Source: Candidatus Dormiibacterota bacterium | GTDB lineage: Bacteria > Chloroflexota > Dormibacteria > Aeolococcales > Aeolococcaceae | Length of the DNA: 64,000 bases | NCBI GenBank assembly: GCA_963716365.1 | Contig: OY970307.1 | Location: forward strand, 1,551,253 to 1,615,252 | Direction: 5' to 3' | Shown here: piece by piece, positions 6,637-58,108 of the stretch | How positions within the stretch are numbered: position 1 is the stretch's first letter | How the letters are laid out: each line of letters begins with the position of its first letter | Translations under genes and position numbers: made by a program | Notes under the pieces: model-generated | What the model was told of the DNA's origin: nothing | What the model saw: only the letters and a program-made list of their open reading frames with translations | The model's database searches: none

Positions 6637-7692
6637 GTGGATGTGCGAATCGATGTGGGGCGCCCCGGGAATCTGACAGGCCGCCAGGCCGCTATCGCAG
6701 CGCTCGAGCGCATCGCACACATCCTCGAGCGCGAACAGGAGCCCACATACCGGGTGCGCGCTTTCCGCAATGCCGCCGCTGTCGTTCGTGCGCTCTCCGA
6801 CACGGAGTTGGAGGAGCGCGGCAGGCGCCGCACGCTGCAAAGCCTTGCGGGAATCGGGCCGGCGACCGCACGGGTCATCGAGGAGGTGCTTGCGGGTACG
6901 ATTCCGGCGTACCTCGAGCGCCTCGAAACAGAGGCCCCGCCGATACCGGCCGACGCGCTGGCACTGCGCGCGGCCCTGCGTGGTGACTGTCACGTGCACT
7001 CCGACTGGTCAGACGGCGGCAGCCCAATCGAGGAGATGGCTCGCACCGCTATCGACCTTGGACATGAGTACATGGTGCTCACGGACCACTCGCCGCGGCT
7101 GACGGTTGCGCACGGGCTGAGCATCGAGCGCCTCCGCGAGCAGCTCGACGTCGTGCGCGAGATCAACGAGCGGCTCGCGCCGTTTCGCATCCTCACAGGC
7201 ATCGAGGTCGACATCCTCGAGGATGGCGAGCTCGACCAGGAGCCGGACCTGCTCGCGCAGCTCGACGTCGTCGTCGCGAGCGTGCATTCCAAGCTGCGCA
7301 TGCCGGGTGCGGAGATGACACCGCGGATGATCGCCGCAATCCGCAACCCGCACATGGACATCCTTGGTCACTGCACCGGGCGGATGGTCGTCGGCCGCGG
7401 CCGGCCGGAGTCGGAGTTCGATGCCGATGCGGTGTTCGCAGCGTGTCGCGAGCATCACGTCGCCGTCGAGGTCAACGCACGCCCGGAGCGGCTCGATCCC
7501 CCGAAACGCCTGCTCACCCTCGCGATCGAGACCGGATGCCAGGTCGCCATCGACACCGACGCGCACGCGCCGGGTCAGCTCGAGTGGCAGCTACGCGGGT
7601 GCGAGCGTGCTGCCCTGTGTGGTGTTTCTGCCGATATGGTCATCAACACGATGCCAGCAGACGACCTCCTCGCGTGGACACGGGCGGGGTGA
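6637..7692 (+). CDS. PHP domain protein with an N-terminal PolX-like helix-hairpin-helix / 8-kDa region (PolX lacking the polymerase core)
   Basis: 351 aa with a GTG start. The N-terminus (YRVRAFRNAA...LAGIGPATARVIEEVL) is PolX-lyase/HhH-like. It is followed by PHP metal-binding motifs (HVHSDWSDG, LTDHSP, HS, DTDAH). Confidence 0.7.
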   Translation: MDVRIDVGRPGNLTGRQAAIAALERIAHILEREQEPTYRVRAFRNAAAVVRALSDTELEERGRRRTLQSLAGIGPATARVIEEVLAGTIPAYLERLETEAPPIPADALALRAALRGDCHVHSDWSDGGSPIEEMARTAIDLGHEYMVLTDHSPRLTVAHGLSIERLREQLDVVREINERLAPFRILTGIEVDILEDGELDQEPDLLAQLDVVVASVHSKLRMPGAEMTPRMIAAIRNPHMDILGHCTGRMVVGRGRPESEFDADAVFAACREHHVAVEVNARPERLDPPKRLLTLAIETGCQVAIDTDAHAPGQLEWQLRGCERAALCGVSADMVINTMPADDLLAWTRAG

Positions 7693-7693
7693 C

Positions 7694-8962
7694 TCAGGCT
7701 GGCGCGTAGCTTCTGAGCAATGGCTCCCAGTCCGCGTCGTGTGCACTCACGGTCCGTTGCGGTGGCACCACTGGTAGCGTCGACTTGAACCCCGCACCGG
7801 TGTCGAACGCAACGACGGTGTCGTCGGGCCCGATGGCCCCTTGACGGCGAAGCTCCGGCAGTGACGCGAACACTGCGGCGGTCTCGAGGCTCAGGAATCG
7901 GGCGCCGTGACTCGCCGCGAAAGCCTGCGTCGGTGCGAGCTCGGCCTCGGGTACCGCGATCGCCGTGCCGCCCGATGTGGTGATCGCTTCAAGGATGAGG
8001 AAGTCGCCGACGCTGCTCGGCACGCGCAAGCCTGCTGCCTCGGTCGTGGCGTCTTCCCAGGGCTCTGCGAATTGCTTGCCGGCGAGGAACGCGCGCACCA
8101 ATGGCGCGCAGCCCTCGACCTGAATGCCGACCATCCGCGGACGCGCAGCGCCGAGCAAACCCATCGCCTCGAGCTCCGCGAACGCCTTCCACATCCCGAT
8201 GAGGCCGGTCCCGCCACCCATCGGATAGACGATCACATCGGGCAGCGACCAGCCGAGGTCCTCCGCGAGCTCGATCCCCATCGTCTTCTTGCCCTCGACG
8301 CGATACGGCTCTTTGAGTGTGCTCAGGTTGAACGCGCCAGTGCGCTCCGCGATGCGCGCCGTCAACCGCCCGCAATCCGAGATGAGGCCGTCGACAAGGA
8401 TGAGATCGGCGCCGCACGCCGCGACCTCAACCTGGTTGACGACTGGGGCGTCGCTCGGCATGACGACCGTCGCCTGCAGGCCCGCGACGGCGGCATACGC
8501 GGCCAGCGCGCCGCCGGCATTGCCCGCCGACGGCATCACGAAGCGTGTGGCTCCAAGCTCTTTGGCGCGGCTCACGGCAACCGTCATGCCGCGTGCCTTG
8601 AACGATCCTGTCGGATTCAGGCTCTCTGCTTTCACGAGCAGCCGGCGGATCCCGTACGCAGCGCCAAGTCGTGGCGCCTCCAGCAACGGCGTCGAACCTT
8701 CACCCAGGGTGACGACGTTCGCCCAATCGCGCACCGGGAGAACCTCGCTCCACCGCCACACGCCGAGTGTGCGATCGCGACCGTTGTGCTGACGATCGCG
8801 CAGCGTGCTGGCCGCTTGCTCGAGGTCGTAGCGGGCGAGCAGCGGACGGCTGTCGGACGGGTCGACGGTCACCAGCTCGTCGGCCGAGTAGGAGATGTGA
8901 CTGAGCCCGCCCTCGAGGTGCGTCAGCGTGGAACCAGTCGCGCTGGTATCTACGTCGCTCAT
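7694..8962 (-). CDS. threonine synthase family PLP-dependent enzyme
   Basis: 422 aa. It has the PTGSFKARG lysine motif and a glycine-rich PLP loop (GNAGGALAAYAA), with a fold-type II PLP enzyme layout. Confidence 0.65.
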   Translation of the reverse strand: MSDVDTSATGSTLTHLEGGLSHISYSADELVTVDPSDSRPLLARYDLEQAASTLRDRQHNGRDRTLGVWRWSEVLPVRDWANVVTLGEGSTPLLEAPRLGAAYGIRRLLVKAESLNPTGSFKARGMTVAVSRAKELGATRFVMPSAGNAGGALAAYAAVAGLQATVVMPSDAPVVNQVEVAACGADLILVDGLISDCGRLTARIAERTGAFNLSTLKEPYRVEGKKTMGIELAEDLGWSLPDVIVYPMGGGTGLIGMWKAFAELEAMGLLGAARPRMVGIQVEGCAPLVRAFLAGKQFAEPWEDATTEAAGLRVPSSVGDFLILEAITTSGGTAIAVPEAELAPTQAFAASHGARFLSLETAAVFASLPELRRQGAIGPDDTVVAFDTGAGFKSTLPVVPPQRTVSAHDADWEPLLRSYAPA

Positions 8963-9032
8963 GACGCCTCGCTCCCGGCACTGCTCGGGACGCCGACAAT
9001 CGAAACGTGGCTCATGTTCGGACTATAGACGC

Positions 9033-9548
9033 GTGATCCTCCCCAAGATCCGTGATCCACGGTTCATCACAGTGCGTCGCGGCGGTACCCTCCGGGACAC
9101 CGATCATCACCTCCTCGCGTTGTGGGCGGCTGATTGCGCGGAGCACGTGCTGCACCTCTTCGAGCAGGTACGTCCGGACGACGACCGTCCACGCCGAGCG
9201 ATCGAGCTGGGCCGGTCGTGGGCCCGCGGCGAGATCACGTGGTGGGAGGCGCGCACCGCGGGCGGCCATGCGAATGGGGCGGCCAGAGACCTGAGCGGGG
9301 CACCACGGCATGCCGCCTACGCTGCCGGTCAGGCCGCAGCGGTGGGCCACGTGGCGGCGCATGAGCTCGGGGCAGCTGCCTACGCCATCAAGGCCGTGCG
9401 AGCGGCAGCAATCGCGGACGACGGCGTGGCGGCGGGCCGTCTAGAGTGCCAGTGGCAGCACGACCAGCTCCCCAAGGAGATCCGAGCACTCGTCCTCGAC
9501 GACGAGCGGCTCCGCAACGAGTTGTGTTGGTTTGCCTTCGATTGCTGA
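9033..9548 (+). CDS. hypothetical all-helical protein (resembles 'putative immunity protein' / Imm-5-like family)
   Basis: The motif LALWAADCAEHVLHLFE is followed by an Ala-rich helical region. The start was chosen at an in-frame GTG after the thrC-like stop; the 8928 start would overlap the upstream gene by 35 nt. Family assignment is from memory. Confidence 0.4.
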   Translation: MILPKIRDPRFITVRRGGTLRDTDHHLLALWAADCAEHVLHLFEQVRPDDDRPRRAIELGRSWARGEITWWEARTAGGHANGAARDLSGAPRHAAYAAGQAAAVGHVAAHELGAAAYAIKAVRAAAIADDGVAAGRLECQWQHDQLPKEIRALVLDDERLRNELCWFAFDC

Positions 9549-9563: not shown

Positions 9564-10091
9564 TCAGCGACCGCCCCGCCGCGTCGTCCCGTCAAGCAGC
9601 TCCCTCGCGATGTCGAGATGACCGGCATGACGTGACGTCTCCTCGATCATGTGCAGCACGACCCAGCGAACATTCGGTGGCACGAAATCGCCGTGTGTGC
9701 CGACCGGGCGCGCTGAGAGCGGTGTCATCGCGAGTACCGCCTCTGACGCTGCGCATTGGTCGCGGTAGAAGGCCACGACCGACGCGGACGGCTCGTCGCT
9801 TGTGAACACGACGGTCAATGGGTCGTACGGCGGCTGATCCTCATCGAGATCACCGGGAAGTTCCGGCTGCTTGCCGCATACGACACCCTGGAACCAGTGC
9901 CACTCGGCGCCGCCCAGATGCTCGAGCAGCCCCGCAGGCGTCCACCCCGTTGGCACAACGGACCGATGCCAATCCGCGTCGTCCATTCCCTCGACAATCG
10001 CCAATACCGACTCGCGCTGGCCGCGCAGAAATTCCCGGAGCATTTCATCGTCGGGTTCATCATTCACAGGAACTTCCACTCTCCTGCGCAC
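9564..10091 (-). CDS. DinB_2/DUF664 (mycothiol-dependent transferase-like) family protein
   Basis: 175 aa with HLGGAEWHWF and HMIEETSRHAGHLDIARE (His-triad region typical of DinB/YfiT-like proteins). Confidence 0.6.
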   Translation of the reverse strand: MRRRVEVPVNDEPDDEMLREFLRGQRESVLAIVEGMDDADWHRSVVPTGWTPAGLLEHLGGAEWHWFQGVVCGKQPELPGDLDEDQPPYDPLTVVFTSDEPSASVVAFYRDQCAASEAVLAMTPLSARPVGTHGDFVPPNVRWVVLHMIEETSRHAGHLDIARELLDGTTRRGGR

Positions 10092-10186
10092 TGCTGCTCA
10101 CGATATGCGAGGGCACGCGTAGCCGTTAGTCCTCAACGAATTGCACGATTTGGCGGCATTCTATCGCTTCCCATCCGCTTCGCACC

Positions 10187-10942
10187 TCAGCTGCGCGGAC
10201 GGGAGGCACTCAGCATTCGGACCGTGAAGGGGAGAATTGATTGCTGTGCCAGCTCGCCGCAGAACACGGTGAAGTGGAGACCATCGGAAAATCGGCACTG
10301 CTGACCGTCCACAAAGCTCGCGAAGTGGCCCTGCGGCGAGACAATGCTGTCGAGATTCTCGACCGCGACCCGACCCGTCGCACCGGCGGCCGCAGCCGCA
10401 AGCAACGCATTGATCTCTTCGTGGCGTGTAGGACTTGCGACGGCGGCGAGTGATCCGTCGGGGTTGGTCACATTGGCATCCGCGATGCTGAGCAGCACGA
10501 CTGGGATGCCTCCTTGTCCCAGCGTTGAGAGCAGCAACGACATGCGCTGGCTGACATATGCATCGTATGCGGCCTCGCCGAGATGCTCGATGCGTCCGCC
10601 GATCTTCACGTCAAACAAGTCGCGCCACCCCAACTCGACGACGACCACCTGTGCCCCGACGGCCACCTCATCCTGGCGCCAGTGCTCGATCTCCGTGTTG
10701 CATTCCGCCGGCAACGGAGTCCAGCCGGTGCTCTGGGTCAGGTCGAACTCGCTGGGAAGTCCGAACCCGCAACCGGGCAACGGGTCCAAAAAAATCTCCG
10801 TGTTGTAGCGCTCCTCGTCCTGCATCAGCCCCACACCGAGTGTCGCTGCAAGCGAGTCGCCGATCACCAATACGTGCGTCGGCGGGCACAGCGGAAACGT
10901 GATCGAGGCACTCCCGCTGTAGGCGCTCGGGACCGGGATCAC
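10187..10942 (-). CDS. SGNH/GDSL hydrolase domain protein
   Basis: VIGDSLA (GDS block I), a Gly block and a C-terminal DGLH motif. It lies in the same reading frame as the upstream acyltransferase, separated only by one TAG codon. Confidence 0.7.
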   Translation of the reverse strand: MIPVPSAYSGSASITFPLCPPTHVLVIGDSLAATLGVGLMQDEERYNTEIFLDPLPGCGFGLPSEFDLTQSTGWTPLPAECNTEIEHWRQDEVAVGAQVVVVELGWRDLFDVKIGGRIEHLGEAAYDAYVSQRMSLLLSTLGQGGIPVVLLSIADANVTNPDGSLAAVASPTRHEEINALLAAAAAGATGRVAVENLDSIVSPQGHFASFVDGQQCRFSDGLHFTVFCGELAQQSILPFTVRMLSASRPRS

Positions 10943-10954
10943 GTTGGCGGGGAT

Positions 10955-12325
10955 CTAACTCGGCGGTGGCGGGGCGACGATTTCGTTGGCTGTGTCGGTT
11001 GCGACGACACTGCACGGCGGCGCCGACGTCGCCGACGCCGGCACGCCCGGGACGTTTGTCGGCGGCGGAGGCGGCACGAATGTCACGGCAGCAGCGTTTG
11101 TCGCAGCAACGAGGCTCGCTGCGGCGAGCGCAGCGCCGGCTGGCGCGAGCGCGCGCACACTCCAGCGCGGCAACCGCTGACGGCGAATGGGCTGCTCAAT
11201 AGCGAAGAAGGAGACCGTTGCCACAGCGAATGTCACGCCGACGCGGACGACGAACAGCGCAAGCCCGCTGACGCCGATCAACTCCTGCGTGAGCCAGACG
11301 AATAGGGGAAAGTGCCAGAGGTAGAGGCCGTAAGAGATGTTCCCGATTGCTCGCATCGGGGGAATCGCGAGTAGGCGTCCGAGCGGCCAATGCGGCAACG
11401 CGGTGATGCCGAGAATGATCGTCGCGACGCACACGTCGAAGCCGAGAAACCCGAACCGATACAGCCCGTTCGAGCCGCTGCTCAGCGCGGAGATCGACCA
11501 GAGAAGCGCAAGGCCACCGGCGATAGTGAGGACGCCCAGGACCGCGTGTGAGACCCGTGGATATGCACTTCGTCGCCGCCGTCGCGCTGGACGTGTGACG
11601 GGGCGCAACGCAAGGCCGAGCGCAAGTGCACACCCGACCAGCAAGGCCTGAGCGCGAGTATCTGTGCCGAGATACACACGGTTGACTCCATCTGGACCAA
11701 CCAGGAGGGCCATGTCCACAGCGGACGCGAGCGCGCCGGCCAAGGAGATATACAGGAGGAGACGAAGCGGTCGGCGGGGATCGGTTGCAGCGTTGGCGGT
11801 CCGCTTGACGATCCAGAGGACGGCGAGCACCACCAACGGCCAGATGATGTAGAACTGCTCCTCGATCGCCAGCGACCAGGTGTGCTGGAGCGGTGAGACA
11901 GGTCCCGTCGCACCGAAGTACGTGCTGCCCGCGATGAGTTGCTGCCAGTTCCCAACGTAGAAGAGTGCGCCAAGCCCGCTCGCAAGGAGATCGGGCACCG
12001 ATTTCGTCGGACCCGCGATGGTCTGATAGATCCCGACCACCGCGATCACCACAAAGAGGGCCGGGAGCAGGCGACGTGCGCGACGAGCCCAGAAATGTTT
12101 GAGTGCAATCGACGACGTGTTCCGCATTTCGGCGATGAGCAACGACGTGATGAGGAATCCGGAGAGCACAAAGAACACTTCCACGCCGAGAAAGCCGCCG
12201 CCGGCCCACCCCACTCCGGCGTGGAACAGGATGACGGCGATCACGGCGACCGCCCTCAGGCCATCGAGTGCGGGCATGTGGCCCAGATGAGCCCCGCGCG
12301 CCGTCCCTCCCCTACGCTGCGACAT
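10955..12325 (-). CDS. acyltransferase family 3 (OatA-like) integral membrane protein
   Basis: LDGLRAVAVIAVILFH near the N-terminus, multi-TM, 456 aa from ATG 12325. The annotated 12415 start adds a Gly/Arg-rich extension. Confidence 0.75.
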   Translation of the reverse strand: MSQRRGGTARGAHLGHMPALDGLRAVAVIAVILFHAGVGWAGGGFLGVEVFFVLSGFLITSLLIAEMRNTSSIALKHFWARRARRLLPALFVVIAVVGIYQTIAGPTKSVPDLLASGLGALFYVGNWQQLIAGSTYFGATGPVSPLQHTWSLAIEEQFYIIWPLVVLAVLWIVKRTANAATDPRRPLRLLLYISLAGALASAVDMALLVGPDGVNRVYLGTDTRAQALLVGCALALGLALRPVTRPARRRRRSAYPRVSHAVLGVLTIAGGLALLWSISALSSGSNGLYRFGFLGFDVCVATIILGITALPHWPLGRLLAIPPMRAIGNISYGLYLWHFPLFVWLTQELIGVSGLALFVVRVGVTFAVATVSFFAIEQPIRRQRLPRWSVRALAPAGAALAAASLVAATNAAAVTFVPPPPPTNVPGVPASATSAPPCSVVATDTANEIVAPPPPS

Positions 12326-12392
12326 AGCAGTGCATCGTAGGGGCATCCCGGCCGATGCGGCTCCTTGACGCCATCCGGGTTTCTTCCGGCGC

Positions 12393-12917
12393 CTACGCCC
12401 CGAGCTCGAGGCCATCGAGAGCCCCGCCTTGCCGCGTCAGCCCAATGTGACCGGGGTCGTCGAGGGGTTCCCGCCATGCCTTCCCCCGCACGATTTGCCC
12501 CACGTTTGCGTGGCTGACGCCGAACGCAGATGCAATGGATCGGTACGTCGCTCCGTAATTCGCCATGAGCCTGATTGCAAACACGTCATCGCCGGTAAGC
12601 CTCGAATTGGCGTGACGTTCGCCACGGTTTGAGCGGCGATTCAGCATCTGCTGATCGAATGTTGTCCAACGACAGTTGCCCGGTTCGTAATTGCCCTCGT
12701 TGTTGATCCGATCCAGGGAGAGGTCGTCCGGGCACGCACCCATGTCGGCGAAGAAGTACTCGAAGCGGCGCCAGCGATTGCAAACGCTGATGCCGCGCCC
12801 GCCATAGCGTGACCAGTCCGCACTCGAGCGATTCGTACAACGCGACAGCATGGCCTTCCAGGCGTGGTACGTGCGCGTGCCGTCACGAGCTGCTTGTCCG
12901 TGGCTGAGTGGCACCAC
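12393..12917 (-). CDS. phage-type HNH endonuclease (mycobacteriophage-like YGGRGI...DRINNEGNYEPGNCRW family)
   Basis: The motif string TYHAWKAMLSRC...YGGRGISVCNRWRRFEYFFADMG...LSLDRINNEGNYEPGNCRWTTFDQQ matches the HNH/AP2-like endonucleases common in actinophages. The start was trimmed to GTG 12917 so that it does not overlap the tRNA. Confidence 0.6.
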   Translation of the reverse strand: MVPLSHGQAARDGTRTYHAWKAMLSRCTNRSSADWSRYGGRGISVCNRWRRFEYFFADMGACPDDLSLDRINNEGNYEPGNCRWTTFDQQMLNRRSNRGERHANSRLTGDDVFAIRLMANYGATYRSIASAFGVSHANVGQIVRGKAWREPLDDPGHIGLTRQGGALDGLELGA

Positions 12918-13022
12918 CGCAGTGAAGCTTCCTGGCGCGCCCTCACTGCGGACAGTCGCCGGCCGCCCGGACCTCTTGATGCACCCATCCGAAGCCTCTG
13001 GGGGGACCGATTTGGAAGGGTC

Positions 13023-13094
13023 AGCGGGAGACGGGGCTCGAACCCGCAACTTCAACCTTGGGAAGGTTGCACTCTACCATTGAGTTACTCCCGC
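13023..13094 (-). tRNA. tRNA-Gly (anticodon CCC)
   Basis: The minus-strand sequence GCGGGAG-TA-ACTCAATGGTAGAGT-GCAACC-TTCCCAA-GGTTG-AAG-TTGCGGGTTCGAGCCCCG-TCTCCCGC-T forms a cloverleaf with a 7-bp acceptor stem, a CCC anticodon in a 7-nt loop and a TpsiC GTTCGAG box. CCA is not encoded. Confidence 0.85.
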
Positions 13095-13202
13095 GGGTAT
13101 TTGGTCTCTTGGAGTGTTTCCTTTGACAAAGGGGAGTAGTGGATCGATGCCCCAGGCCGGCTGAAACCCTCGGCGAGGGAGCCATCGTAGACCGCTGCAG
13201 CG

Positions 13203-14153
13203 TCATTGCGGAGGCCTCCGCGACAACTCGCCGTCGCGCAGAACCTGCATGAGCCGGTCGTGGGCATCGGCGGGATCCAGGAGGTCGTAGTGGTGACGGA
13301 TCATCGCCTCGCTGCCGTGGCCGAGGATGCGTTCAACCACGATCGTGCTCTGGCCGCTCATGAGCATCCAGTGACACGCGCTGTGGCGGATCACGTTTGG
13401 GCTCACCGCGAACTGAATCCCTGCCTCGAGGGCGAGCGCGCCAACCATCTGACGCACACCAGGGACGGTGAGCACCTCGCGCTCTCCGGTGCGTCGGTCC
13501 CGACGCAGGCCGATGAACACCGGGTCGTCGTCCCCGCCTCGAGCAAGCGAGCGTATGCGAGCGAACATCTCCGGCGTGATCGGCACGTCTCGTTCGTCGA
13601 CCTCACTTCGGACACGCACGAAGTGGCGGAGCCCCTGCACGAGCAGATCGCCGTTGGTGATCGCAACGAGCTCGCCAGATCTCATGCCTGTGTCGGCGAG
13701 CAGCCGGATGATCACGCGGTCGCGTTCAGCCGCGGCGGTGCGCTCCAATAGCGCGATCTGTTGACGATCCAGCGTGTTTACCTTGCGTCCGGCCGGCTGG
13801 TGCAACTCGACCTTCGGCGCCGTGGTCGAGTGTTCCGCGGCGTACCAGCGCATCAGCTGGTTCGCAGCCTTCTTGTACGTCCACATCGTCGCGTCCGACA
13901 ACGGTTTGCCGACGCGGGTTGAGCGGCTGCAGAGGTCGGCGGCGAAGCGTTCCAGGGTGTCTTGGTTGATGCCGGCGGCACTCGCGATACCCTCGCGCTG
14001 ACACCACGGCAGCAACACAGCACGCAACGAGTACCCGTACGAGTGCTTGATGGTGCTGGGTTTCACACCATTCGACAGGCAGTGGACGATGTAGTTCTCG
14101 ATCTCGGTCGCCAGGTCGCTGCGCGGCGCCTTCAGAACCCGGGTTCCGGCCAC
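13203..14153 (-). CDS. tyrosine-type site-specific recombinase / phage integrase
   Basis: 316 aa with a GTG start. The catalytic R...HxxR...H...Y pattern is present (GMRSGEL, RHSACHWM, LGHGS, HHYD). Confidence 0.8.
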   Translation of the reverse strand: MAGTRVLKAPRSDLATEIENYIVHCLSNGVKPSTIKHSYGYSLRAVLLPWCQREGIASAAGINQDTLERFAADLCSRSTRVGKPLSDATMWTYKKAANQLMRWYAAEHSTTAPKVELHQPAGRKVNTLDRQQIALLERTAAAERDRVIIRLLADTGMRSGELVAITNGDLLVQGLRHFVRVRSEVDERDVPITPEMFARIRSLARGGDDDPVFIGLRRDRRTGEREVLTVPGVRQMVGALALEAGIQFAVSPNVIRHSACHWMLMSGQSTIVVERILGHGSEAMIRHHYDLLDPADAHDRLMQVLRDGELSRRPPQ

Positions 14154-14406
14154 AGTGCTCTCCTGACAAGTGAAGAAATGGAATGGAGTGTTCCCTGAGT
14201 ATGCGGATTGCCACGAAGCAACAGCCTCGAGGAACTCCGCTCCAAAGGCTCCTTTCCTTCCTGCATTCGCCGGCGGTTCTCTGGTGCACTCGTCGGGAAG
14301 GGCATCATCAACGCGCGACGGACATTCGGCGATTGCCTCGCAGCGGCTTCAATGTCGTCGATGTGCTGCTCGTTTCGTTGCAGCGGCTCTGACATCATCA
14401 CACTGC

Positions 14407-14850
14407 ATGGACGCATTCCGAAACGACGTCGACGAGTTCTGCGACGGGACTACCAACGACCTCGCGTCGTTCGCCGTGCCCAGCGCCGACGTTGATCAGG
14501 CGTCGTTCGATGTCGCGAGCTCACGGATATCCACTCTCTGTCAGAGGCTCGCGGTGGGAGCGGCCTTCGCGCGCTGGAGTGACTTGCCGGAGCGCGACCG
14601 GGTACTCGACATCGCGCGGAATGACCCTCCCGCGCTGACCGAGGAGTCGCCGCGACACGTCTGGGAAGCGCTCGCAACGATCATCGGTTGGGATGCCTAT
14701 GACGAGGTCCCATTGAGCCAGAACCGCCAGGCTGCAGCTCATCTTGCCAACGAACTTCGGTCACGACTGGTCGCCGACAAGGAGGGGACGCTCGCGGCGA
14801 TCGTCCCGCCGTGGTCGACGGGGTACTCACTCAATCCGGTCCGCCGCTAG
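14407..14850 (+). CDS. hypothetical protein (possible island cargo)
   Basis: An ATG start (MDAFRNDVDEF...) lies inside a longer 14170 ORF. The region upstream of it has lower GC than the surroundings. No recognisable domain. Confidence 0.35.
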   Translation: MDAFRNDVDEFCDGTTNDLASFAVPSADVDQASFDVASSRISTLCQRLAVGAAFARWSDLPERDRVLDIARNDPPALTEESPRHVWEALATIIGWDAYDEVPLSQNRQAAAHLANELRSRLVADKEGTLAAIVPPWSTGYSLNPVRR

Positions 14851-14906
14851 CCCGGTCGTGACCTGGTCGTCACGATAGGCCCGGCGACCCGGGGCATGAT
14901 GCAGCG

Positions 14907-16007
14907 GTGATCAGGCTTCGACCGGACGCACGACGCCTTCGAATCGGCGTCGTATTCGCCGGCGCGCTCCTCATCCTCACCGCCTGCAGCGGACCCGCTG
15001 CCCAGGCTGTTCCGACGCCCGCGGGTGGTGGCGTCCTCGGAGCTCTCCCCCATCTTCCGGGACCGCCGACGCCGGCGCCGGCCACCGCAAATGCGACCGC
15101 CGAAGCGCGGTTGACGCTCGCGCCAACGCACCACAGCGCATCGCCGACCCACGCCCCGACGCCGCAGGCCACGTCGCTCACGAAGATCGGTGGCTGTCAG
15201 GTATTCCCGCCCAACAACCCGTGGAACGAGAACATCTCGAAGCTCCCGGTGAATCCCAACTCGGCGGAGTACATCGCCAGCATCGACTCAACGAAGCAAT
15301 TCCTGCATCCGGACTTTGGCTCGGATCCGACGTACGGCATCCCATACACCGTGGTGCCGAAGTCACAGCCCTTCGTCCCGATCACGTTCACTGCCTACGG
15401 CGACGAGAGCAACCCCGGGCCGTATCCCGTTCCCCTGAACGCGCCGGTGGAGTCGGGCAGCGATCGTCACGTGCTCGTCGTCGACAGCGGCAACTGTCAT
15501 CTCTACGAGATGTATGACGCACAGCAGGTCGGCGCAGGATGGGAGTGCGCGTCCGGCGCCGTCTTCAACCTCAACAGCAACGCGCTCCGCCCCGAGGGGT
15601 GGACGTCAGCGGACGCGGCGGGACTGCCGATCCTGCCCGGCCTTGCGCTGTACAGCGAAGTGGCCGCGGGCGCCATCGATCACGCGTTGCGGTTCACCGT
15701 CCAGGACTCGCAGAACGGGTGGATCAGCCCCGCGACGCACGAGGCCGGTTCGGCCAATCCAGGGTTGCCACCGATGGGACTCCGGCTCCGCCTCAAAGCG
15801 TCGTTCAGCCTCGCGGGATTCCACGGCGAAGCGCTCATCATCCTCACCGCGCTGAAGACGTACGGCATGATCGTTGCCGACAACGGCAGCAGCTGGTACA
15901 TCAGCGGTGACACCGATCCGCGCTGGAACGACAACGATCTCGATCAACTGAAGACCGTTCCGGGCAGCGCGTTCGAAGCAGTCGAGACGGGTCCGATCCA
16001 GCACTGA
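14907..16007 (+). CDS. secreted lipoprotein, unknown function
   Basis: Signal peptide with lipobox LTAC at residues 23-26, a Pro/Ala-rich linker, then a roughly 270-aa domain I cannot assign. Confidence 0.6.
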   Translation: MIRLRPDARRLRIGVVFAGALLILTACSGPAAQAVPTPAGGGVLGALPHLPGPPTPAPATANATAEARLTLAPTHHSASPTHAPTPQATSLTKIGGCQVFPPNNPWNENISKLPVNPNSAEYIASIDSTKQFLHPDFGSDPTYGIPYTVVPKSQPFVPITFTAYGDESNPGPYPVPLNAPVESGSDRHVLVVDSGNCHLYEMYDAQQVGAGWECASGAVFNLNSNALRPEGWTSADAAGLPILPGLALYSEVAAGAIDHALRFTVQDSQNGWISPATHEAGSANPGLPPMGLRLRLKASFSLAGFHGEALIILTALKTYGMIVADNGSSWYISGDTDPRWNDNDLDQLKTVPGSAFEAVETGPIQH

Positions 16008-16014
16008 CCGCGGG

Positions 16015-17463
16015 TCAGCGCGATGCTGCAGTCAACTCCACGACGGGGTACTTACCGGCGGCGTAGTCGGCACGGATGACTTTCTTGTCGAGCTTGCCCA
16101 CGCTCGTTTTCGGCAGCTCATCGACAAACGCCCAGCGCTCCGGCAACCACCAGCGCGCGACCTTCGGCGCCAGGAACTCGCGCAACTCCTCCGGCGTTGC
16201 GGATTTGCCCTGCTTGAGCACCACAGTCGCCAACGGGCGCTCGGCCCAACGCTCATCCGGGACGCCGACGACAGCCGCGTCCGCCACCGCCGGGTGACCC
16301 ACGAGCAAGGTCTCCAGCTCCACCGACGAGATCCACTCCCCACCGGACTTGATCACGTCCTTCGAGCGATCGGTGATCTGCACGAAGCCGCGCTCATCGA
16401 TGTTGCCGACGTCTCCGGTGCGCAGCCACCCGTCGTGGAATTTCTCCGGCGCTTCGGTGTTGTAGTACGAGCCGGTGATCCACGGCCCGCGCACCTCGAT
16501 CTCGCCGACAGCCTCACCGTCATGCGGCACCACCGCACCGGCGTCATCGACGATGCGCAACTCGACACCCGGGACCGCCTTACCGGTCTTGCCGCGGTAG
16601 TGCATCTCGTCCTCGGGCGCCGTGTCCTTGGGTGGAAGCGCGATCGTCGCGATGGGGCTCGTCTCTGTCATCCCCCATGCCTGCCACAGCTCGATGCCGA
16701 GCACGTCCTTGTACGCGGCAATGAGCGACGACGGCACAGCGGAACCGCCGCACACCGCTGTTTTGATGCTCGACACATCCCCACCGTTGGCCTGCACGTG
16801 GTTCAGCAGCGCGGTGAGGATCGTCGGCACACCACCGGTGAACGTCGGCCGCTCCTGCGTGATGAAGTCGCAGAGCCCCTGCGGCTGCAGGAATCGTCCG
16901 GGCAACAGCAGATCGCTGCCGACCAGCCAGCCCGCGTAGGGCGTCCCCCACGCGTTGACGTGGAACATCGGCACGATGATGAGCAGGCGCCCGTTGTCAT
17001 CGAGGCGGAATGTCGCCCATACCGCGAACGAATGCAGATACACCGAGCGATGGCTGTACGCAACGCCTTTCGGATCGCCGGTGGTCCCGGTCGTGTAGCA
17101 CATGGACGCCGCGCTGCGTTCGTCGATGGCAGGCCAGCCGAACGTCGGCGACTCAGCCGCAAGCAGCGTCTCGTAGGCGAGCGTGTCGCCGAGTCCCGAC
17201 GCCTCCCCGGAACCGACGACGATCACCTTCTCGACGCTCGGGCAATTCCCGATCACCGACGCCAGCAAGGGCGCGAGCGAGTCATCGACGATGACGACCT
17301 TGTCCTGCGCATGGTTGATGATCTGCGCGAGCTGCGGCGGTGGGAGGCGCAGGTTGAGCGTGTGCAGCACGGCCCCCATACAGGGGATCGCGAGGTACGC
17401 CTCCATGTGCTCCTGGTGGTTCCAGCAGAGCGTCCCGAACTCGGTCGCCAGGCCCAACGCCAA
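16015..17463 (-). CDS. long-chain fatty-acid--CoA ligase (AMP-dependent synthetase, FadD family); the main ORF lacks its N-terminus because of a frameshift
   Basis: [35 protein letters not shown] (AMP motif), [21 protein letters not shown] and a C-terminal VGKLDKK. The true N-terminus (MNSTMQDLQLSITEIF...GDRV) lies in another frame at 17282..17635. Confidence 0.75.
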
Positions 17464-46465: not shown

Positions 46466-47571
46466 CCGAGCCACCTCCCCTGCGCGAAGATCCACGTTCC
46501 CGCGCACATCAAGACGCCGCTGGCGACCAGGATCGCCGGTCGAGCTCGCGCGAATCGTGCGGTGAGGTCCGCCACGAGGATCACCGCTGGGAAGAGGGCA
46601 AGGATGTAGCGCGGTTGCGAGCGCCAGAACGGCAGCGATGCAGTCATCAACCAGGCGATGGTGCAGTACAGCGCGAAGGATCGGGGGATCCGTGATGAGG
46701 CCCACATCCCGAAGCACAGCAACAGTCCGAGGAGCCCACAGGCCACTTCGCGCGCAAAGATCGACCGCGTCTCCCCATCGGAAGCACTGATCAGCGTGTG
46801 CCAGGTCGCGGCGAATCCGGTCCACGGCGGCGTCGGCTGGAGGCCGAAGGAGGGCGATCTGTCGGCATCCAGCAGGGCGCGCACGTCGCCGATGTGGACC
46901 TGCATGTAGAGGGAGTACAGCGCGAGCGGCAGCAGCAGCGCGAGCACGAGCAACAGATCCGGACGCGGGCGCCAACCGCTCCGGCGCAGCTGCTCGATGG
47001 CAAGCGCGGGGATGAGCGCGAGCCCCGTGAGCCGGAACGCGCACGCCAGCGCGCCGGCGACGATCGCCTTGCGCGACTGTCCGGCGCGCGCGTAGTACAG
47101 GCTCGCCGCTGCAGAGGCGATGAACGTGCTCTCACTGAACGGCGCGATGAGGAAGAGCGCGGTCGGCGCGAGTGCGACCAACCACATCGAGAACGTCGCC
47201 GATGCCTGGTCGCGCTCGGCGCGCACCAATCGAAAGAGATACCAGAGCCCCACCGTCTCCGCTACTGCGTTGACCAACCATGAAGCCGTGACATCGTCGC
47301 GGGTGATGAACGCGACCCCCTTCACGAGCAACGGAAACCCCGGCAGGAATGCGTCGATGTAACTGAGGTGCGCCGGATAGCCGTTGGCGGCGATCGACAG
47401 ATAGCTGACCGCGTCCCACGCCGCCAGGTGGTCGTGCAGGAAGGTGAACAGCGGCACTCCCGGGAAGTCGAGGACCAGCACGGCGACGAACACGACGAGC
47501 CAGAGCACCCGCGACACCAGGACCGCCGCCAGGGCAGTCCCCCACGGCGACGCTGAGGCCCGTGTGCTCAC
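46462..47571 (-). CDS. polytopic membrane protein, DUF2029/GT87-like putative mannosyltransferase
   Basis: 369 aa with about 9 TM segments and conserved loop residues resembling the PIG-V / GT87 / DUF2029 family. It has 4-nt overlaps with both neighbours. Confidence 0.5.
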   Translation of the reverse strand: MSTRASASPWGTALAAVLVSRVLWLVVFVAVLVLDFPGVPLFTFLHDHLAAWDAVSYLSIAANGYPAHLSYIDAFLPGFPLLVKGVAFITRDDVTASWLVNAVAETVGLWYLFRLVRAERDQASATFSMWLVALAPTALFLIAPFSESTFIASAAASLYYARAGQSRKAIVAGALACAFRLTGLALIPALAIEQLRRSGWRPRPDLLLVLALLLPLALYSLYMQVHIGDVRALLDADRSPSFGLQPTPPWTGFAATWHTLISASDGETRSIFAREVACGLLGLLLCFGMWASSRIPRSFALYCTIAWLMTASLPFWRSQPRYILALFPAVILVADLTARFARARPAILVASGVLMCAGTWIFAQGRWLG

Positions 47572-48323
47572 GCCGGCGGATCGAGCCCGTCGAGCAGATC
47601 GGGATGCGTGCGCAGTTGCCAGAGCTCGCGGAACGCGCGCACCACAACGCTCACGTTGGCGCCGGTCGCGCGGCCGGTCGTGCGCGGGTAGTGATGGACG
47701 CCGACATCCATGAGGCGGTATCCGCTTCGCCGCGCACGCACCAGGAGCTCGGTGCAGACGAGCGCCCCCTCGGAGTGCAAGCCCTGACCGACCGCTCGAG
47801 GAAACAGCTTGAACGCGCAGTTCACATCGCGCACCGTGGGCCCGAAGAGCAGACGGACGAGGCCGAAGAACGCGCTGTGATACGCACGGCGCAGGAACGT
47901 GTCGTTGCGCCGGATGCGGAAGCCGGACACCACCTTGTCGGGCGCGTACAGCGCGAGCAAACGCGAGATCTCGGTGGGATCGAACTGGCCGTCACTGTCC
48001 ATGTGGAACACCGCCTCGCACGTCGCGGCGTCGAACCCGGTGCGCAGGGCGGCACCGTAGCCGCGGTTGCGCGGGTGCGACACCACCCGCACTCGCCTGC
48101 CGGGCACCGCTGCACTCTCGGCGCGCGCCGCGGTGGCATCGCTGCTCCCGTCATCGATGACGAGGATCTCGAAGTCAGTGATGCCGAGCGCCGCGATGGC
48201 ATCGCCGGTTCGCTGGACGGTCTCGGCGATCACCGCCTCCTCGTTGAACGCGGGAAGCACCGCGCTGATCGAGGGTTGCGCGCGCGCAAGGGACTTGCGG
48301 CCGGGCACCTCAGCTTCTTCCAC
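47568..48323 (-). CDS. GT2 polyprenol-phosphate mannose (or glucose) synthase, DPM1/Ppm1-like
   Basis: SAVLPAFNEE, VIDDGSSD, the DxD motif (FHMDSDGQ) and DVNCAFKLF. The start is one of two GTGs (48308 or 48323). Confidence 0.75.
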   Translation of the reverse strand: MEEAEVPGRKSLARAQPSISAVLPAFNEEAVIAETVQRTGDAIAALGITDFEILVIDDGSSDATAARAESAAVPGRRVRVVSHPRNRGYGAALRTGFDAATCEAVFHMDSDGQFDPTEISRLLALYAPDKVVSGFRIRRNDTFLRRAYHSAFFGLVRLLFGPTVRDVNCAFKLFPRAVGQGLHSEGALVCTELLVRARRSGYRLMDVGVHHYPRTTGRATGANVSVVVRAFRELWQLRTHPDLLDGLDPPA

Positions 48324-50529
48324 GCACGTCGTAGATGATGATGTGATCGGTACGCGCCACGACCGGAAAGCCCTGTTCCGACCACCAGGTGAACCCCGGC
48401 TTTGATTCCACCGCGCCGGGGTCCGAGGTCCGGTTGTCAATCTCGACGTAGCTGATGTCGTACTTGTGCAGCAGCGCGAAGACCGGGCACGTCGCGGCGG
48501 TATCCGTGCACCCCGAGTACATCGCCTGAACATCCGCGTAGCGGGTGCCGATGTCGATGCCGTAGCTCCAGAGCCAGCCCCCATACCCCATGACGCCGAT
48601 GCGACCGGCAACAGCGAGTACAGGGTCGTTGGGACGGCCGAAGGTGAGGAACACGGCGCCCTTCGGCGTCGTCTTCTCGAGCGTCGATGCCAGTTGCACT
48701 TCCTGGGCATTGGCGATCGTGTACGGCCCGGTGATCGCATCCGCCGGCGGCGTCCAGGGCAACAGCCGCAGGACCACAAGCGCGCCGGTGAAGAGCACCG
48801 GACCGACGAGCGCGATGGCGGCGATCCGCGGCCACACCCGCCGCCACCAGTGCGCTGCGAGCGCCCCGACGAGCAGCGCCATGACGAGGTACCAGTAGAC
48901 GAGCAGCTTGGTGTTGTCCCAGTTCCAGGTCTGGAAGACCACGAGGTTGCACGCGGCGAAGATGATCAGTCCGCCCAATGCGAGTTCGAGCAGCGGCACC
49001 GGGAACGCCGCGGTCACGGCGCGCCCCGCGCGCGCCAATTCCCCGCCGGCGCGCCGAGCCAGCATCGCCAGCGCAACGAAGGCGAGGAGCGGCACCGCGA
49101 TCCCGAGGTTGGCGAGCCAGAAGCCCCACCACTGCGCGGTCCCCACCATCCCGATCGCCTGGATCGCCCCGCCGACAAAGTTCCCGACGGACATCTCGAG
49201 ACGACCGCTCGGATCGGCGGTCGTCCCCGCGTTGGAGAGCCACCCCGGTTCGATCCATGGATAGACGTTGGTGCCGTATGGATTCACCGACGAGCCGTGC
49301 GCCGTCAGCGCGAGCTGGGCCAGACGAACCCCGCCGATGAGCATCGCGACGCCGGCGAGCGCGAGCCACTCCCGTCGCCGCCGTCGCCAGAGCAGCACGA
49401 ACAGCAGGATGGAGAGCGCGATAAGCGTCTGCACGTGGACGATCGGCAGGAGGCCGACCAGCACGCCCGCGAGCACGAACGCCTCCCAGCTCCTGCCCCC
49501 CGACGACGCGCCCGAGAGGACAAGCAGCAGCACGCTGATCGCCGCCGCGAAGCCGAAGAGCAGCGTTCGCTGGGGCAGCCACCACGCCATGAGCGGCGTG
49601 TACCACTGCATGTTCGGGAGCGGCGCGGTGCCGCCGTCGGACGGCAGGCCGTCGTAGGCGCGCGGCTGCGCGGCGATCGTGCCGGGCAGGTCGTGGAGCG
49701 TCCAGCCGATGATCGAGAGCCCCGTGCCGGGGTGAGTCACGACGTACTGGAAGGTGCACTGCGTGGCGGTGTAGCCATGGTTCGTGCAGGCGTCAGCAAA
49801 AACCCCGATGAAGCCGAGGCCCCCGCCGATGAAGCAGATGAGCACGGCGATGACCCCGGCACCGACGCCGAGCCCGAGACGGCGCCCAAGCGCGACGACG
49901 AGCATCCCGATCACCACCATGAGCACCGCGCCCGGGATGGCCAGGGCCAGCCCGGGTGACAGGCCGAGCGTGATCAGCGTGGCCGCGTGAAAGTCCGGAA
50001 GAAACGGATAGAGGAGCGTCGTCCCGCTGAACAGCGGGTTGATCGGCGGGATGTTGCCGCCCATCGCGAAGCTCGCGGCGGTCGTGAGGTGCTGTGACCA
50101 GTCGGCCCAGACCGTCGGGTAGCCTGCTTCGAGCCCGCCCGAGTCCGTGTAGACCGTATGCGCGAAGATTGCGGTGACCGCCGCCCCGCCCACGGCCAGC
50201 GCGATGATGGAGAGCCAGGGCGTCTGCTGGGCCCAGCGGTCCCGGGATTCGACCCATGAGGCGTACCAGGTCGACCGGGGATCGACTGTTAACAACGACG
50301 CCGCAAGCGCCCCCGCGAGCGCGATGAGCGGCCCCTCCAGCACGGTTGCGGTGCTCAGCCCGAAGACCAGCGAGAGGCCGTAGGTCACCCCGGAGGCGAC
50401 CAGCACCCCGGTGATCACGCCGATGAGCCCGCGCTCCATGAGCGTCAGGTGGGTGCGGATCAACCCGGTCAGCGCGGCCCCGGCAGCGAGCGTCAGGGCA
50501 GCGTCAAGGATGACGAGGAACGCGGTCAC
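48310..50529 (-). CDS. large GT-C fold integral membrane glycosyltransferase (ArnT/PMT_2-like), putative
   Basis: 739 aa, 13 or more TM segments. The C-terminal soluble domain (GRPNDPVLAVAGRIGVMGYGGWLWSYG...YDISYVEID) resembles the ArnT/GT39-type C-terminus. It overlaps PMT by 4 nt (GTGA). Confidence 0.5.
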   Translation of the reverse strand: MTAFLVILDAALTLAAGAALTGLIRTHLTLMERGLIGVITGVLVASGVTYGLSLVFGLSTATVLEGPLIALAGALAASLLTVDPRSTWYASWVESRDRWAQQTPWLSIIALAVGGAAVTAIFAHTVYTDSGGLEAGYPTVWADWSQHLTTAASFAMGGNIPPINPLFSGTTLLYPFLPDFHAATLITLGLSPGLALAIPGAVLMVVIGMLVVALGRRLGLGVGAGVIAVLICFIGGGLGFIGVFADACTNHGYTATQCTFQYVVTHPGTGLSIIGWTLHDLPGTIAAQPRAYDGLPSDGGTAPLPNMQWYTPLMAWWLPQRTLLFGFAAAISVLLLVLSGASSGGRSWEAFVLAGVLVGLLPIVHVQTLIALSILLFVLLWRRRRREWLALAGVAMLIGGVRLAQLALTAHGSSVNPYGTNVYPWIEPGWLSNAGTTADPSGRLEMSVGNFVGGAIQAIGMVGTAQWWGFWLANLGIAVPLLAFVALAMLARRAGGELARAGRAVTAAFPVPLLELALGGLIIFAACNLVVFQTWNWDNTKLLVYWYLVMALLVGALAAHWWRRVWPRIAAIALVGPVLFTGALVVLRLLPWTPPADAITGPYTIANAQEVQLASTLEKTTPKGAVFLTFGRPNDPVLAVAGRIGVMGYGGWLWSYGIDIGTRYADVQAMYSGCTDTAATCPVFALLHKYDISYVEIDNRTSDPGAVESKPGFTWWSEQGFPVVARTDHIIIYDVRGRS

Positions 50530-52472: not shown

Positions 52473-52582
52473 CTATTTACAAGAATTGGAGGTTCCTTTA
52501 CTGCTATCCTGAGAGGCGAGCAGTACAGTCAAGGCCGCAGGCGTTGCGCCGCGCATATCTGAAACTCATTCCCTTCCTGAAA

Positions 52583-52613
52583 GGCCGGAGGGTTCCCCCT
52601 CCGGTCTTTTTTT
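52583..52613 (+). terminator. intrinsic terminator GGCCGGAGGG-ttcc-CCCTCCGG followed by T7; A-tract on the other side (possibly bidirectional)
   Basis: Perfect 8-bp GC stem plus tcttttttt, lying 13 nt beyond the glpK stop in a lower-GC 150-nt gap. Confidence 0.6.
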
Positions 52614-52625
52614 GCCCTTTGAGGG

Positions 52626-54140: not shown

Positions 54141-54171
54141 AGGCGTCAGCCCCATGGACGTGCGCCGCGGT

Positions 54172-55224
54172 TCAGGCCGCTGAGGTCACCGGGGTCTGGG
54201 TGCTCGGGATGATTGCGAGCATGCGGTCGATCGCGCCGCGTGCCTGCGCCGCGATCACCGGATCGACCGTCACCCGCGGGCCCATGCGCTCGAGCGAGAG
54301 CGCGACCTTCTCGAGCGTGATCTTCTTCATGTAGGGGCAGACCGCGGCTTCGGACGCAGCGAGGAATCGCTTGCCGGGGGAGTCGAGCTCCATGCGATGG
54401 ATGATCCCGACCTCCGTCGCGACGATGAACGTGCTCGACGGTGAAGCGGCGGCGCGCCGGACCATCCCCTCGGTGGAGGTGACCACGGTCGCGGGGCCGC
54501 GAAGGTCGCCGGACGACATGCGATACAGCGTCGACGACGTGCAGCCGCACTCCGGATGGATGAGCAGCTCCGCGTCGGGGTTCTCGCGACGCATCGCGTC
54601 GAGACGCTCCGGATGGATGCCGGCGTGGACGTGGCATTCGCCCATCCAGATGTGCAGCTTTCGCCCGGTGACTCGCTCCAGGTGCGCTCCGAGGAACATG
54701 TCCGGGCAGAACAGGATCTCCCGATCCGCGGGGATGGAGCGGATCACTGCCTCGGCGTTCGACGACGTGCAGCAGTAGTCGGAGAGCGCCTTCACCTCGG
54801 CGGTCGTGTTGACGTATGACACAACGACTGCACCGGGGTGCTGTCCCTTCCACTCGCGCAACTGGTCCGCGTCGATAGTGGCCGCCAGCGAGCATCCGGC
54901 CTCGAGATCAGGCAGCAATACGGTCTTCTGCGGCGACAGGATCGCGGCGGTCTCGGCCATGAAGTGGACGCCGCAGAACACGATCACCGAGGCATCGGTG
55001 GCCGCCGCCTGTTGCGACAGCCCGAGCGAGTCGCCGACGAAATCGGCGATGTCCTGCACTTCAGGACGCTGGTAGTTGTGGGCCAGGATCACCGCGTTGC
55101 GCTCGCGCCGCAAGCGTTCGATCCGGTCCAGCAACCCGGTCCGGTCCTCCCTCTCCACGTCAGTCGCCGTGTTGCGTTCTGCTGTGATCACCCCGCCACC
55201 TGTCCCCGACGCCGAGGGCTTCAA
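54172..55224 (-). CDS. nadA: quinolinate synthase A
   Basis: AHNYQ, VHFMAET and CPYMK motifs. 350 aa. Confidence 0.9.
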   Translation of the reverse strand: MKPSASGTGGGVITAERNTATDVEREDRTGLLDRIERLRRERNAVILAHNYQRPEVQDIADFVGDSLGLSQQAAATDASVIVFCGVHFMAETAAILSPQKTVLLPDLEAGCSLAATIDADQLREWKGQHPGAVVVSYVNTTAEVKALSDYCCTSSNAEAVIRSIPADREILFCPDMFLGAHLERVTGRKLHIWMGECHVHAGIHPERLDAMRRENPDAELLIHPECGCTSSTLYRMSSGDLRGPATVVTSTEGMVRRAAASPSSTFIVATEVGIIHRMELDSPGKRFLAASEAAVCPYMKKITLEKVALSLERMGPRVTVDPVIAAQARGAIDRMLAIIPSTQTPVTSAA

Positions 55225-58044: not shown

Positions 58045-58108
58045 TCCGACGGCAGCGGGGGTCCTCGCGACCGGCCGTCGGTGGAGTGCCGGTCGTTCGC
58101 TGATCCTT

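Follow-up and report, generated by a model that had tools for sequence, protein, structure and literature searches.

The 64-kb window analyzed here (64,000 nucleotides of contig OY970307.1 from a Candidatus Dormiibacterota bacterium, assembly GCA_963716365.1) carries a tyrosine integrase gene directly upstream of a gene for tRNA-Gly(CCC). We regard the integrase gene, the 108-nt spacer following it and nucleotides 1–39 of the tRNA gene as the remains of a small reverse-orientation tRNA-integrating element that is old and immobile, and assign this reading a probability of roughly 80%. It builds on gene layout and repeats observed in relatives, on synteny, on signs of selection and on a missing catalytic lysine. 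So far, the element family has been found almost only in Dormibacterota metagenome genomes. In the mechanism that we propose, integrases of this clade would carry out recombination within a tRNA gene's anticodon loop, with a polarity that is the reverse of the usual one. The element would bring a promoter region together with tRNA nucleotides 1–39, integration would leave the chromosomal 5' half of the tRNA as an orphan beside the integrase gene, and the element-borne 5' half and the chromosomal 3' half would combine into a working tRNA at the far end of the element. The integrase would lie on the 5' side of the tRNA because the tRNA is rebuilt at that far end. In the lineage of the window, the cargo between integrase and tRNA and the orphan half-tRNA, i.e. 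the core of attL, would have been lost, presumably in this order, and the remnant, no longer excisable, would then have been inherited vertically.

The tRNA-Gly(CCC) gene (13023..13094, minus strand; 72 nt, CCA not encoded) is the single tRNA gene called by ARAGORN in the window and scores 67.3 bits against the Rfam tRNA model RF00005. Its anticodon loop is located at 13058–13064 (minus strand), and its nucleotides 1–39 (13056..13094, minus strand), comprising the 5' half through the anticodon loop plus two nucleotides, represent the attachment (att) identity block that occurs as orphan copies in relatives. The integrase gene (13203..14153, minus strand; 316 aa) is the sole gene remaining of the element, and its stop codon is situated 108 nt 5' of the tRNA gene on the same strand. 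An initial annotation of this DNA had described the tRNA gene as flanked by the integrase on its 5' side and by an HNH endonuclease gene on its 3' side, and all of these sequence facts are present. It took the arrangement for an integrated-element junction, which holds insofar as the integrase stems from an element that once integrated here and the 3' flank of the tRNA is variable, but there are no present-day boundaries.

Intact elements in relatives provide the key to the arrangement. In locus L168 (GCA_000763215.1; loci are referred to by L numbers throughout), a gene for an AMP-ligase is followed by an orphan copy of tRNA-Gly(CCC) nucleotides 1–39 (9822–9860), an integrase gene (10001–10927) whose product is 62% identical to that of the window, about 8.5 kb of cargo encoding HTH_3, a DUF3854 primase, TerL, several small open reading frames (ORFs) and HicA, and, at the far end of the element, the whole tRNA-Gly(CCC) gene (19457–19530). 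The same element is found in L169. In both loci the two copies of nucleotides 1–39 form a 39-nt direct repeat that brackets about 9.6 kb. Repeat identity in L168 begins at tRNA position 1 and ends at position 39, and all DNA upstream of the whole tRNA is therefore insert. The 3' half of the tRNA passes into the chromosome without a break, and an HNH gene is missing after it. Exact orphans of nucleotides 1–39 also precede the integrase genes in L016 and L092 (67–69% identity), where they end in ...CCTTCCCAAGG, two bases past the anticodon loop, and in all these loci the identity stops at ...CCCAAGG. Crossover thus probably occurs in the anticodon loop. The initial annotation had left it open whether the element or elements extend in either direction; the intact relatives place it wholly 5' of the tRNA, ending at the anticodon loop.

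The same layout is seen with other target genes. The integrases of L020 and L093 (61–62% identity) and also that of L170 are accompanied by an orphan of a tRNA-Gly(GCC)-like gene, and those of L172–L175 (homologues P0085, P0067 and P0086; about 48–57% identity) by orphan nucleotides 1–40 of tRNA-Thr(GGT). ARAGORN detects no whole tRNA in L016, L020, L092, L093, L170 and L172–L175. Genes downstream of the integrase encode an Xre-type helix-turn-helix (HTH) protein and a Toprim/DUF3631 primase in L016 and L092, AAA_25 in L020, and Prim-Pol plus Terminase_4 in L172. The marks of a reverse-orientation element are all found within the integrase clade: an orphan 5' half adjoining the integrase gene, a whole tRNA at the opposite end and duplication of the tRNA 5' part as a direct repeat. 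Locus L017 combines the gene order of the window, integrase followed by whole tRNA, with a degenerate orphan (36 nt, 86%) and a left arm upstream. The situation is different in about 40 paralogues of at most 41% identity, mostly from the same phylum, in which a whole tRNA (Thr, Val, Gly, Arg, Met, His, Ala, Lys, Gln or Pro) is positioned 170–270 nt upstream of the integrase start, and the reversal is therefore a trait of the clade to which the integrase of the window belongs. A search for attR in about 20 of the canonical paralogue loci yielded none within 6–7 kb.

The genes of the intact elements (L168, 9822–19530, and L169; L172, 10001–20885) include those for integrase, an Xre-type HTH protein, a primase (DUF3854 or Prim-Pol), a terminase subunit (TerL or Terminase_4) and HicA. 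Capsid genes are not recognized in the about 9.6 kb of the intact element, and the gene set resembles that of a phage satellite. A peculiar case is L015, in which tRNA-Gly(CCC) is broken (7053–8007): identity ends after nucleotide 37, beyond which there are an insert of 51 nt, a partial T-arm and another integrase (32% identity to that of the window). ARAGORN calls no tRNA in this locus, which may reflect nested integrations or an assembly artefact.

The elements in the relatives also bear on the idea that integrase, tRNA and HNH gene together are left over from a phage or island with a tRNA-Gly(CCC) cargo gene of its own, the host having later lost its copy. The three genes do reside on one strand and are tightly spaced, HNH-like genes follow paralogous integrases at tRNA-Gly(TCC) in L051, L054 and L055, and the D-arm of the tRNA is unusual when compared with tRNA-Gly(CCC) of L024 and L037. 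In L168, however, the tRNA sits at the element boundary, its 3' half runs on into the chromosome and it is not followed by an HNH gene. The orphan halves mark the tRNA as target rather than cargo, and other DNA lies between tRNA and HNH gene in L010, L012, L017 and L091. We thus consider this scenario improbable. As for the D-arm, the 72-nt tRNA of the window type (AACTCAATGGTAGAGT in the D-arm) lacks an encoded CCA, while tRNA-Gly(CCC) from the other Dormibacterota lineages L024 and L037 has 75–76 nt, a standard D-arm and an encoded CCA. The unusual D-arm and the absent CCA would fit a long shared history of this tRNA gene and the element family.

The arrangement in the window is old and widespread. 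The genes for UROD, AMP-ligase, a lipoprotein (on the opposite strand), integrase and tRNA-Gly(CCC) occur in this order in at least 14 other Dormibacterota loci (L004, L008–L013, L017–L019, L021, L090, L091 and L171). The integrases of these syntenic loci are 61–84% identical to that of the window, tRNA-Gly(CCC) lies 110–200 nt past the integrase stop, and the tRNA sequence is near-identical across all relatives. An HNH-like gene directly follows the tRNA in the window, L004, L008, L011, L019, L021, L088 and L171, and is found 1.2–3.4 kb beyond it in L010, L012, L017 and L091. A gene order conserved in relatives together with the lack of an att repeat was what the initial annotation itself had named as an outcome that would refute a recent insertion, and this is the situation encountered here.

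What is left of the element in the window can be delimited by comparison with the relatives. The spacer between integrase and tRNA (13095..13202, minus strand; 108 nt) is the right arm of the element. Its motifs GGTCTACGATGGC, ATCCACTAC and AGGAAACACTCCAA are conserved in all loci with an integrase-then-tRNA order and are recognizable in the 130 nt that precede the whole tRNA of the L168 element at its far end. We infer that the right arm carries the promoter now driving tRNA-Gly(CCC); a scan for promoter and terminator consensus sequences gave no hits, and no sigma-70 consensus is present in the spacer. A left-arm stub (14154..14206, minus strand) directly upstream of the integrase start aligns with the last 55–65 nt of the left arms of L016, L092, L017 and L168 (consensus ...GCGTATGATGGGGGAAACGCTCC...), and the sequence beyond the stub is unrelated to the left arms of the relatives. 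The stub carries GGAACACTCCA, which is also found in the right arm, and the motif GGAA(A)CACTCCA is repeated on both sides of the integrase gene. The remnant accordingly spans about 14206–13056 and consists of left-arm stub, integrase, right arm and tRNA nucleotides 1–39. Since the window contains no orphan fragment and only a left-arm stub of ~55 nt, we speak of a remnant and not of an element, and as the missing orphan half leaves it without an attL core, the remnant cannot excise.

Where an orphan tRNA 5' half and an outer left arm would be expected, the window contains a low-GC spacer and the gene orf147 (together 14207..14850, plus strand; orf147 at 14407–14850). The stretch 14154–14406 has a GC content of 0.569 compared to ~0.66 for the window and corresponds to a low-GC patch noted earlier at ~14170–14420. 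Apart from a roughly 35-codon 3' remnant in L008 (alignment read by eye), orf147 is absent from the other syntenic loci; one of its 11 homologues is 63% identical and resides in an unrelated context. It is a lineage-specific gene.

A second copy of the tRNA 3' end does not exist in the window, neither exact nor with 3 mismatches, in line with the initial annotation, which had seen no such direct repeat by eye and had proposed the search. No k-mer of at least 14 nt from 12950–13210 recurs in the window, matches being confined to chance-level 11–13-mers, and ungapped local matching of tRNA parts including the 3' half to 13 kb downstream and 51 kb upstream performed no better than with shuffled sequence. 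A relaxed Rfam scan brought up no tRNA relic upstream of the integrase or elsewhere in the window, and a search of 12300–16100 for direct and inverted repeats, covering att sites, an invertible promoter of the lipoprotein gene and attC-like sites, returned short chance pairs only. A 12-mer at 10762 was dismissed as an att repeat, as it lies inside the SGNH gene and shows no extension. A canonical 3'-displacing element was likewise rejected, with the integrase on the 5' side and no repeat of the tRNA 3' half above shuffled expectation, and so was an integron: there are no repeated attC-like elements in 12300–16100, and the variable region lies beyond the tRNA and a conserved gene. The composition profile that had been suggested earlier does not single out the region either, GC, GC at third codon positions (GC3) and tetranucleotide composition of 12–16 kb being ordinary for a window with a GC content of about 0.66. 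Tetranucleotide outliers (z >2 versus the 64-kb average, 2-kb windows) are located at 31501–33500, 46501–48500, 52501–54500 and 57501–59500 and are unrelated to the integrase–tRNA region.

These results affect the reading favored in the initial annotation, namely a junction of a present-day element or prophage with its other end within tens of kb. It is true that an integrase and a phage-type gene flank the tRNA, that AT3 acyltransferase genes are common phage morons and that part of the 3' flank (10071–12461) is missing from the closest relative. However, a tRNA repeat above shuffled expectation and an unusual composition are both lacking, the order integrase, tRNA, HNH is common to many species, the flank on the integrase side consists of genes for haem biosynthesis and other core genes, and Pfam and PHROG scans revealed no further phage or element genes nearby. 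A present-day junction is thus very improbable.

The integrase itself matches PF00589 (Phage_integrase) with 62.6 bits at a cut-off of 27.1 and also matches PHROG integrase families. With XerA, XerC and XerD as best relatives in NCBIfam and the PDB, and one syntenic copy per locus, a housekeeping Xer-type dimer resolvase that adjoins the tRNA gene by chance has to be considered, and the profile of the integrase family indeed matches XerA and XerD structures at 1e-21 to 1e-29. Nevertheless, scores remain far below the NCBIfam equivalog cut-offs (XerA 79 versus 220, XerC 45–53 versus 335–371 and XerD 48 versus 330 bits), the nearest relatives reside inside mobile elements beside split tRNAs, the protein evolves much faster than its neighbors and it is devoid of the catalytic lysine, a loss that would not be tolerable for a dimer resolvase. 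We therefore give an Xer function hardly any credence. A scan of IMG/VR with the integrase profile gave no relative closer than 38%, and a search of isolated phages yielded essentially no integrase relatives.

Catalytic residues R158, R256, H279 and Y289 are kept in the integrase of the window. The lysine of the beta-hairpin is replaced by Glu184 (SEVD in place of the family consensus GKTG, whose lysine aligns with that of GK in the solved XerA structure 5hxy), and the histidine position of the HxxR motif is occupied by Asn253, the usual residue of the family at this site being tyrosine. The full catalytic set Arg-Lys-His-Arg-His/Trp-Tyr is incomplete in this protein. In tyrosine recombinases, the hairpin lysine acts as general acid for cleavage, and because of its loss the integrase of the window is likely a poor or dead recombinase. 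GKTG is retained in every integrase copy that adjoins an orphan tRNA half, and the lysine is lost in the window (codon 184, 13602–13604) and in most of the copies without cargo. The position homologous to codon 184 was inspected in L004, L008, L009, L011, L015, L019, L021, L091 and L171. Several of the cargo-less copies vary at the third His position of GHGS, which reads GQGS, GNGS or GPGS. Most likely, then, the integrase of the window is no longer a working recombinase, as judged from its residues.

Its reading frame is intact and under purifying selection, though less constrained than the neighboring genes: the ratio of nonsynonymous to synonymous substitution rates (dN/dS; dN/dS and dS are Nei-Gojobori estimates) is about 0.25, with a range of 0.13–0.27 across the loci with integrase but no cargo, compared with 0.04–0.09 for UROD and the AMP-ligase gene. 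Between window and L008, the integrase dS of 0.35 equals that of the flanking genes (0.28–0.40), as expected for vertical descent.

This persistence raises the question of whether the protein has been domesticated, i.e. is immobile and kept for binding arm sites around the tRNA gene. A domesticated integrase might modulate how the tRNA or the divergent lipoprotein gene and orf147 are transcribed, or might occupy the att site against related elements. The frame is intact in all cargo-less loci at a dN/dS of 0.13–0.27 while dS reaches 0.3–1.3, the catalytic lysine is lost, yet both arginines, the tyrosine and most of the fold are kept, GGAA(A)CACTCCA occurs on both sides of the gene, and the tRNA follows 108 nt past the integrase stop on the same strand. 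Conversely, the dN/dS of the integrase is 3–5 times that of the neighboring housekeeping genes, which speaks for relaxed constraint, the third His varies (GQGS, GNGS, GPGS) as slow decay would have it, and L015 shows that another element still entered the same tRNA. Domestication is thus a tentative alternative at best. A more specific version, in which the integrase would have been co-opted as a catalytically dead (E184) arm-binding protein that controls the element-derived tRNA-Gly(CCC) promoter or shields the much-used attachment site from related elements, appears rather doubtful.

Several points weigh against our preferred reading, an old reverse-orientation remnant. Its comparison set consists entirely of metagenome bins, some with evident mislabels; both element ends are seen only in L168/L169 and L017, and the tRNA-Thr and tRNA-Gly(GCC) elements are read at their left ends only. 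Orphan 5' half and cargo are both absent from the window, so that it is assigned to the family by homology of integrase and arms and by the intermediate L017, not by att sites of its own. Where in the 39-nt block the crossover occurs is taken from the end of identity and is to be regarded as probable only. The integrase dS between window and L021 is 1.28 compared with 0.5–0.8 for the flanks, which hints at allele replacement over plain vertical descent, and the integrase tree is only in part congruent with the AMP-ligase and UROD trees; together, these findings indicate some allele replacement or a strong change in rate. Finally, viewing the locus purely as a relic leaves the purifying selection on a non-excising integrase unexplained.

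The lipoprotein gene (14907..16007, plus strand), with a lipobox-like LILTAC at the start of its product, is a conserved core neighbor outside the element: it is 71–96% identical in syntenic relatives, where it is located between AMP-ligase gene and integrase, and its dN/dS is 0.05–0.3. Neither this gene nor orf147 has a match in Pfam, PHROG or NCBIfam, in agreement with the initial annotation, which had called the two genes unassignable. Upstream of the lipoprotein gene, an imperfect palindrome, TCGTGAC-N6-GTCACGA (14856–14875), resembles an operator and is kept as TCGTGACGACCCGGTCACGA in most of the syntenic relatives.

What lies 3' of the tRNA has to be viewed separately: a conserved phage-type neighbor and a flank in which DNA is gained and lost. 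The ORF 12393–13055 (minus strand) matches PHROG HNH endonuclease families at 1.6e-38, and tblastn retrieves relatives of it from over 1,100 phage records. In its long form, the ORF overlaps the tRNA by 33 nt (13023–13055), which had earlier been taken to favor a shorter start, and we agree: conserved residues H6, G7 and W20 (numbering of the 174-aa form) lie upstream of the ATG at 12851 used by gene callers (152 aa), and GTG 12917 is preceded by AGGAAG, making this GTG the best start. The gene (12393..12917, minus strand) then begins 105 nt past the tRNA 3' end on the same strand, outside the integrase element, and encodes a protein with a C-terminal HTH. This protein has no Pfam HNH match even at E = 10, no NCBIfam model and no PDB sequence match. 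Its motif LDRINNEGNYEPGNCRW features invariant D69 and R70, the invariant pattern being LDRI.N.GNY.P.NCRW, and no histidine within the motif is conserved in 24 homologues. HNH_3 proteins carry a catalytic histidine (DH) at the position of the invariant arginine. An AlphaFold model (pLDDT, predicted local distance difference test, 70) suggests a hairpin plus helix at the motif, and structural matches are limited to the C-terminal three-helix HTH. The gene is under purifying selection (dN/dS 0.14–0.33). We treat it as a conserved phage-derived DNA-binding neighbor outside the integrase remnant; the nuclease label is not justified. Phage proteins labeled HNH endonuclease in PHROG 374, 3377 and 8790 (e.g. 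Pseudomonas phage D3 orf30.5) are 33–52% identical over the N-terminal domain and share with the protein of the window the motif YGGRGI...LDRI.N.GNY.P.NCRW and often a C-terminal HTH. Unlike them, the copy in the window resides in the chromosome, where it is syntenic and evolves under purifying selection in Dormibacterota. HNH-like paralogues (60–63% identical) directly follow paralogous integrases (33–36%) after tRNA-Gly(TCC) in L051 (1288–1710), L054 (7045–7458) and L055 (7032–7454), and the integrase/HNH-like pairing thus recurs at another glycine tRNA gene.

The sequence directly 3' of the tRNA is wholly divergent between lineages. A window-specific stretch of about 2.4 kb (10071..12461, minus strand), comprising the last ~20 HNH-like codons, an AT3 acyltransferase gene (10955–12415) and an SGNH/DUF459 gene (10187–10942), corresponds to about 48 nt in the closest relative, L003/L008. 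The latter two genes (PF01757 and PF04311; PHROG O-antigen acetylase) are absent from all other syntenic loci. As L008 lacks an HNH 3' end that is common to the window and other relatives, part of the difference is a deletion in L008. The variable flank also contains a gene for an Imm5-like immunity protein (8928–9548, plus strand; PF21805, 2.9e-36), which occurs in L003, L007 and L171 as well. In L012, which shares a contig with L007, 1.56 kb with a single gene for an FMO-like monooxygenase and no integrase is bracketed by a direct repeat (22/23; 7148–7170 and 8727–8749) that comprises the tRNA-Gly(CCC) 3' end and 6 further nt, an arrangement resembling an att-flanked cassette. It uses the tRNA 3' end and thus a sublocation different from that of the resident integrase family. 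A resident integrase that captures integrase-less cassettes was considered and rejected on account of this 3'-end use and of L168, where the orphan half upstream of the integrase gene means that the integrase belongs to the insert.

For genome annotation, it follows that no active element should be assigned to the integrase–tRNA-Gly(CCC) locus. The wider family, in which a clade of reversed polarity uses at least three tRNA targets and has canonical sister clades, is of more interest than the copy in the window. Programs for finding islands and prophages expect the integrase 3' of the tRNA and a duplicated tRNA 3' end; the family conforms to neither expectation and would be overlooked or misinterpreted. 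If our reading is true, a host tRNA promoter and 5' half can be of mobile-element origin and stay fixed long after decay of the element, and a reversed-polarity clade beside canonical sisters would constitute a natural system for studying what sets the polarity of integration.

Our literature search found no paper on such reverse-orientation elements in Dormibacterota. Use of the 5' part of a tRNA is described as "considerably less frequent" in PMC6563490, which cites Zhao & Williams (2002) and archaeal cases, and PMC8371274 states that 5'-half attB sites, "seldom encountered in bacteria", are typical of pTN3-like integrases from archaea. The present family thus adds a bacterial, phylum-wide example of a rarely reported polarity, and its canonical sister clades allow comparison. 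The bacterial reverse-orientation elements of Zhao & Williams (2002, J Bacteriol 184:859; cited in PMC6563490) reportedly also rely on a tyrosine integrase, replace the 5' part of the tRNA, drive the tRNA from element DNA and leave a 5' fragment behind. Here, an entire integrase clade is involved that uses three or more tRNA targets (Gly-CCC, Gly-GCC-like and Thr-GGT), and the copy in the window is a fixed remnant without cargo. By description, a likeness also exists to the pTN3-like integrases of Thermococcales (Cossu et al., 2017, as reviewed in PMC8371274), for which attB is the tRNA 5' half and integration, in the account given there, restores an uninterrupted tRNA expressed from element-side sequences, as we propose here. 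According to the same account, these integrases are archaeal and "suicidal", as attP is located inside the integrase gene, which is split upon integration. In the family represented in the window, in contrast, the integrase gene stays whole and the att block lies outside of it. Sublocation classes of tRNA integrases, among them an anticodon-loop class, are said to have been distinguished by Williams in 2002. With classical anticodon-loop integrases, the present clade has in common that the identity block ends at the anticodon stem-loop, the symmetric site used by such enzymes. The paralogues of at most 41% identity from the same phylum exhibit the classical layout of whole tRNA followed by integrase gene, whereas the identity block of the window clade spans the part between loop and tRNA 5' end and not that between loop and 3' end. 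The copy in the window is thus a new and degraded representative of a kind that is known but rare, and is neither unprecedented nor a fresh insertion.

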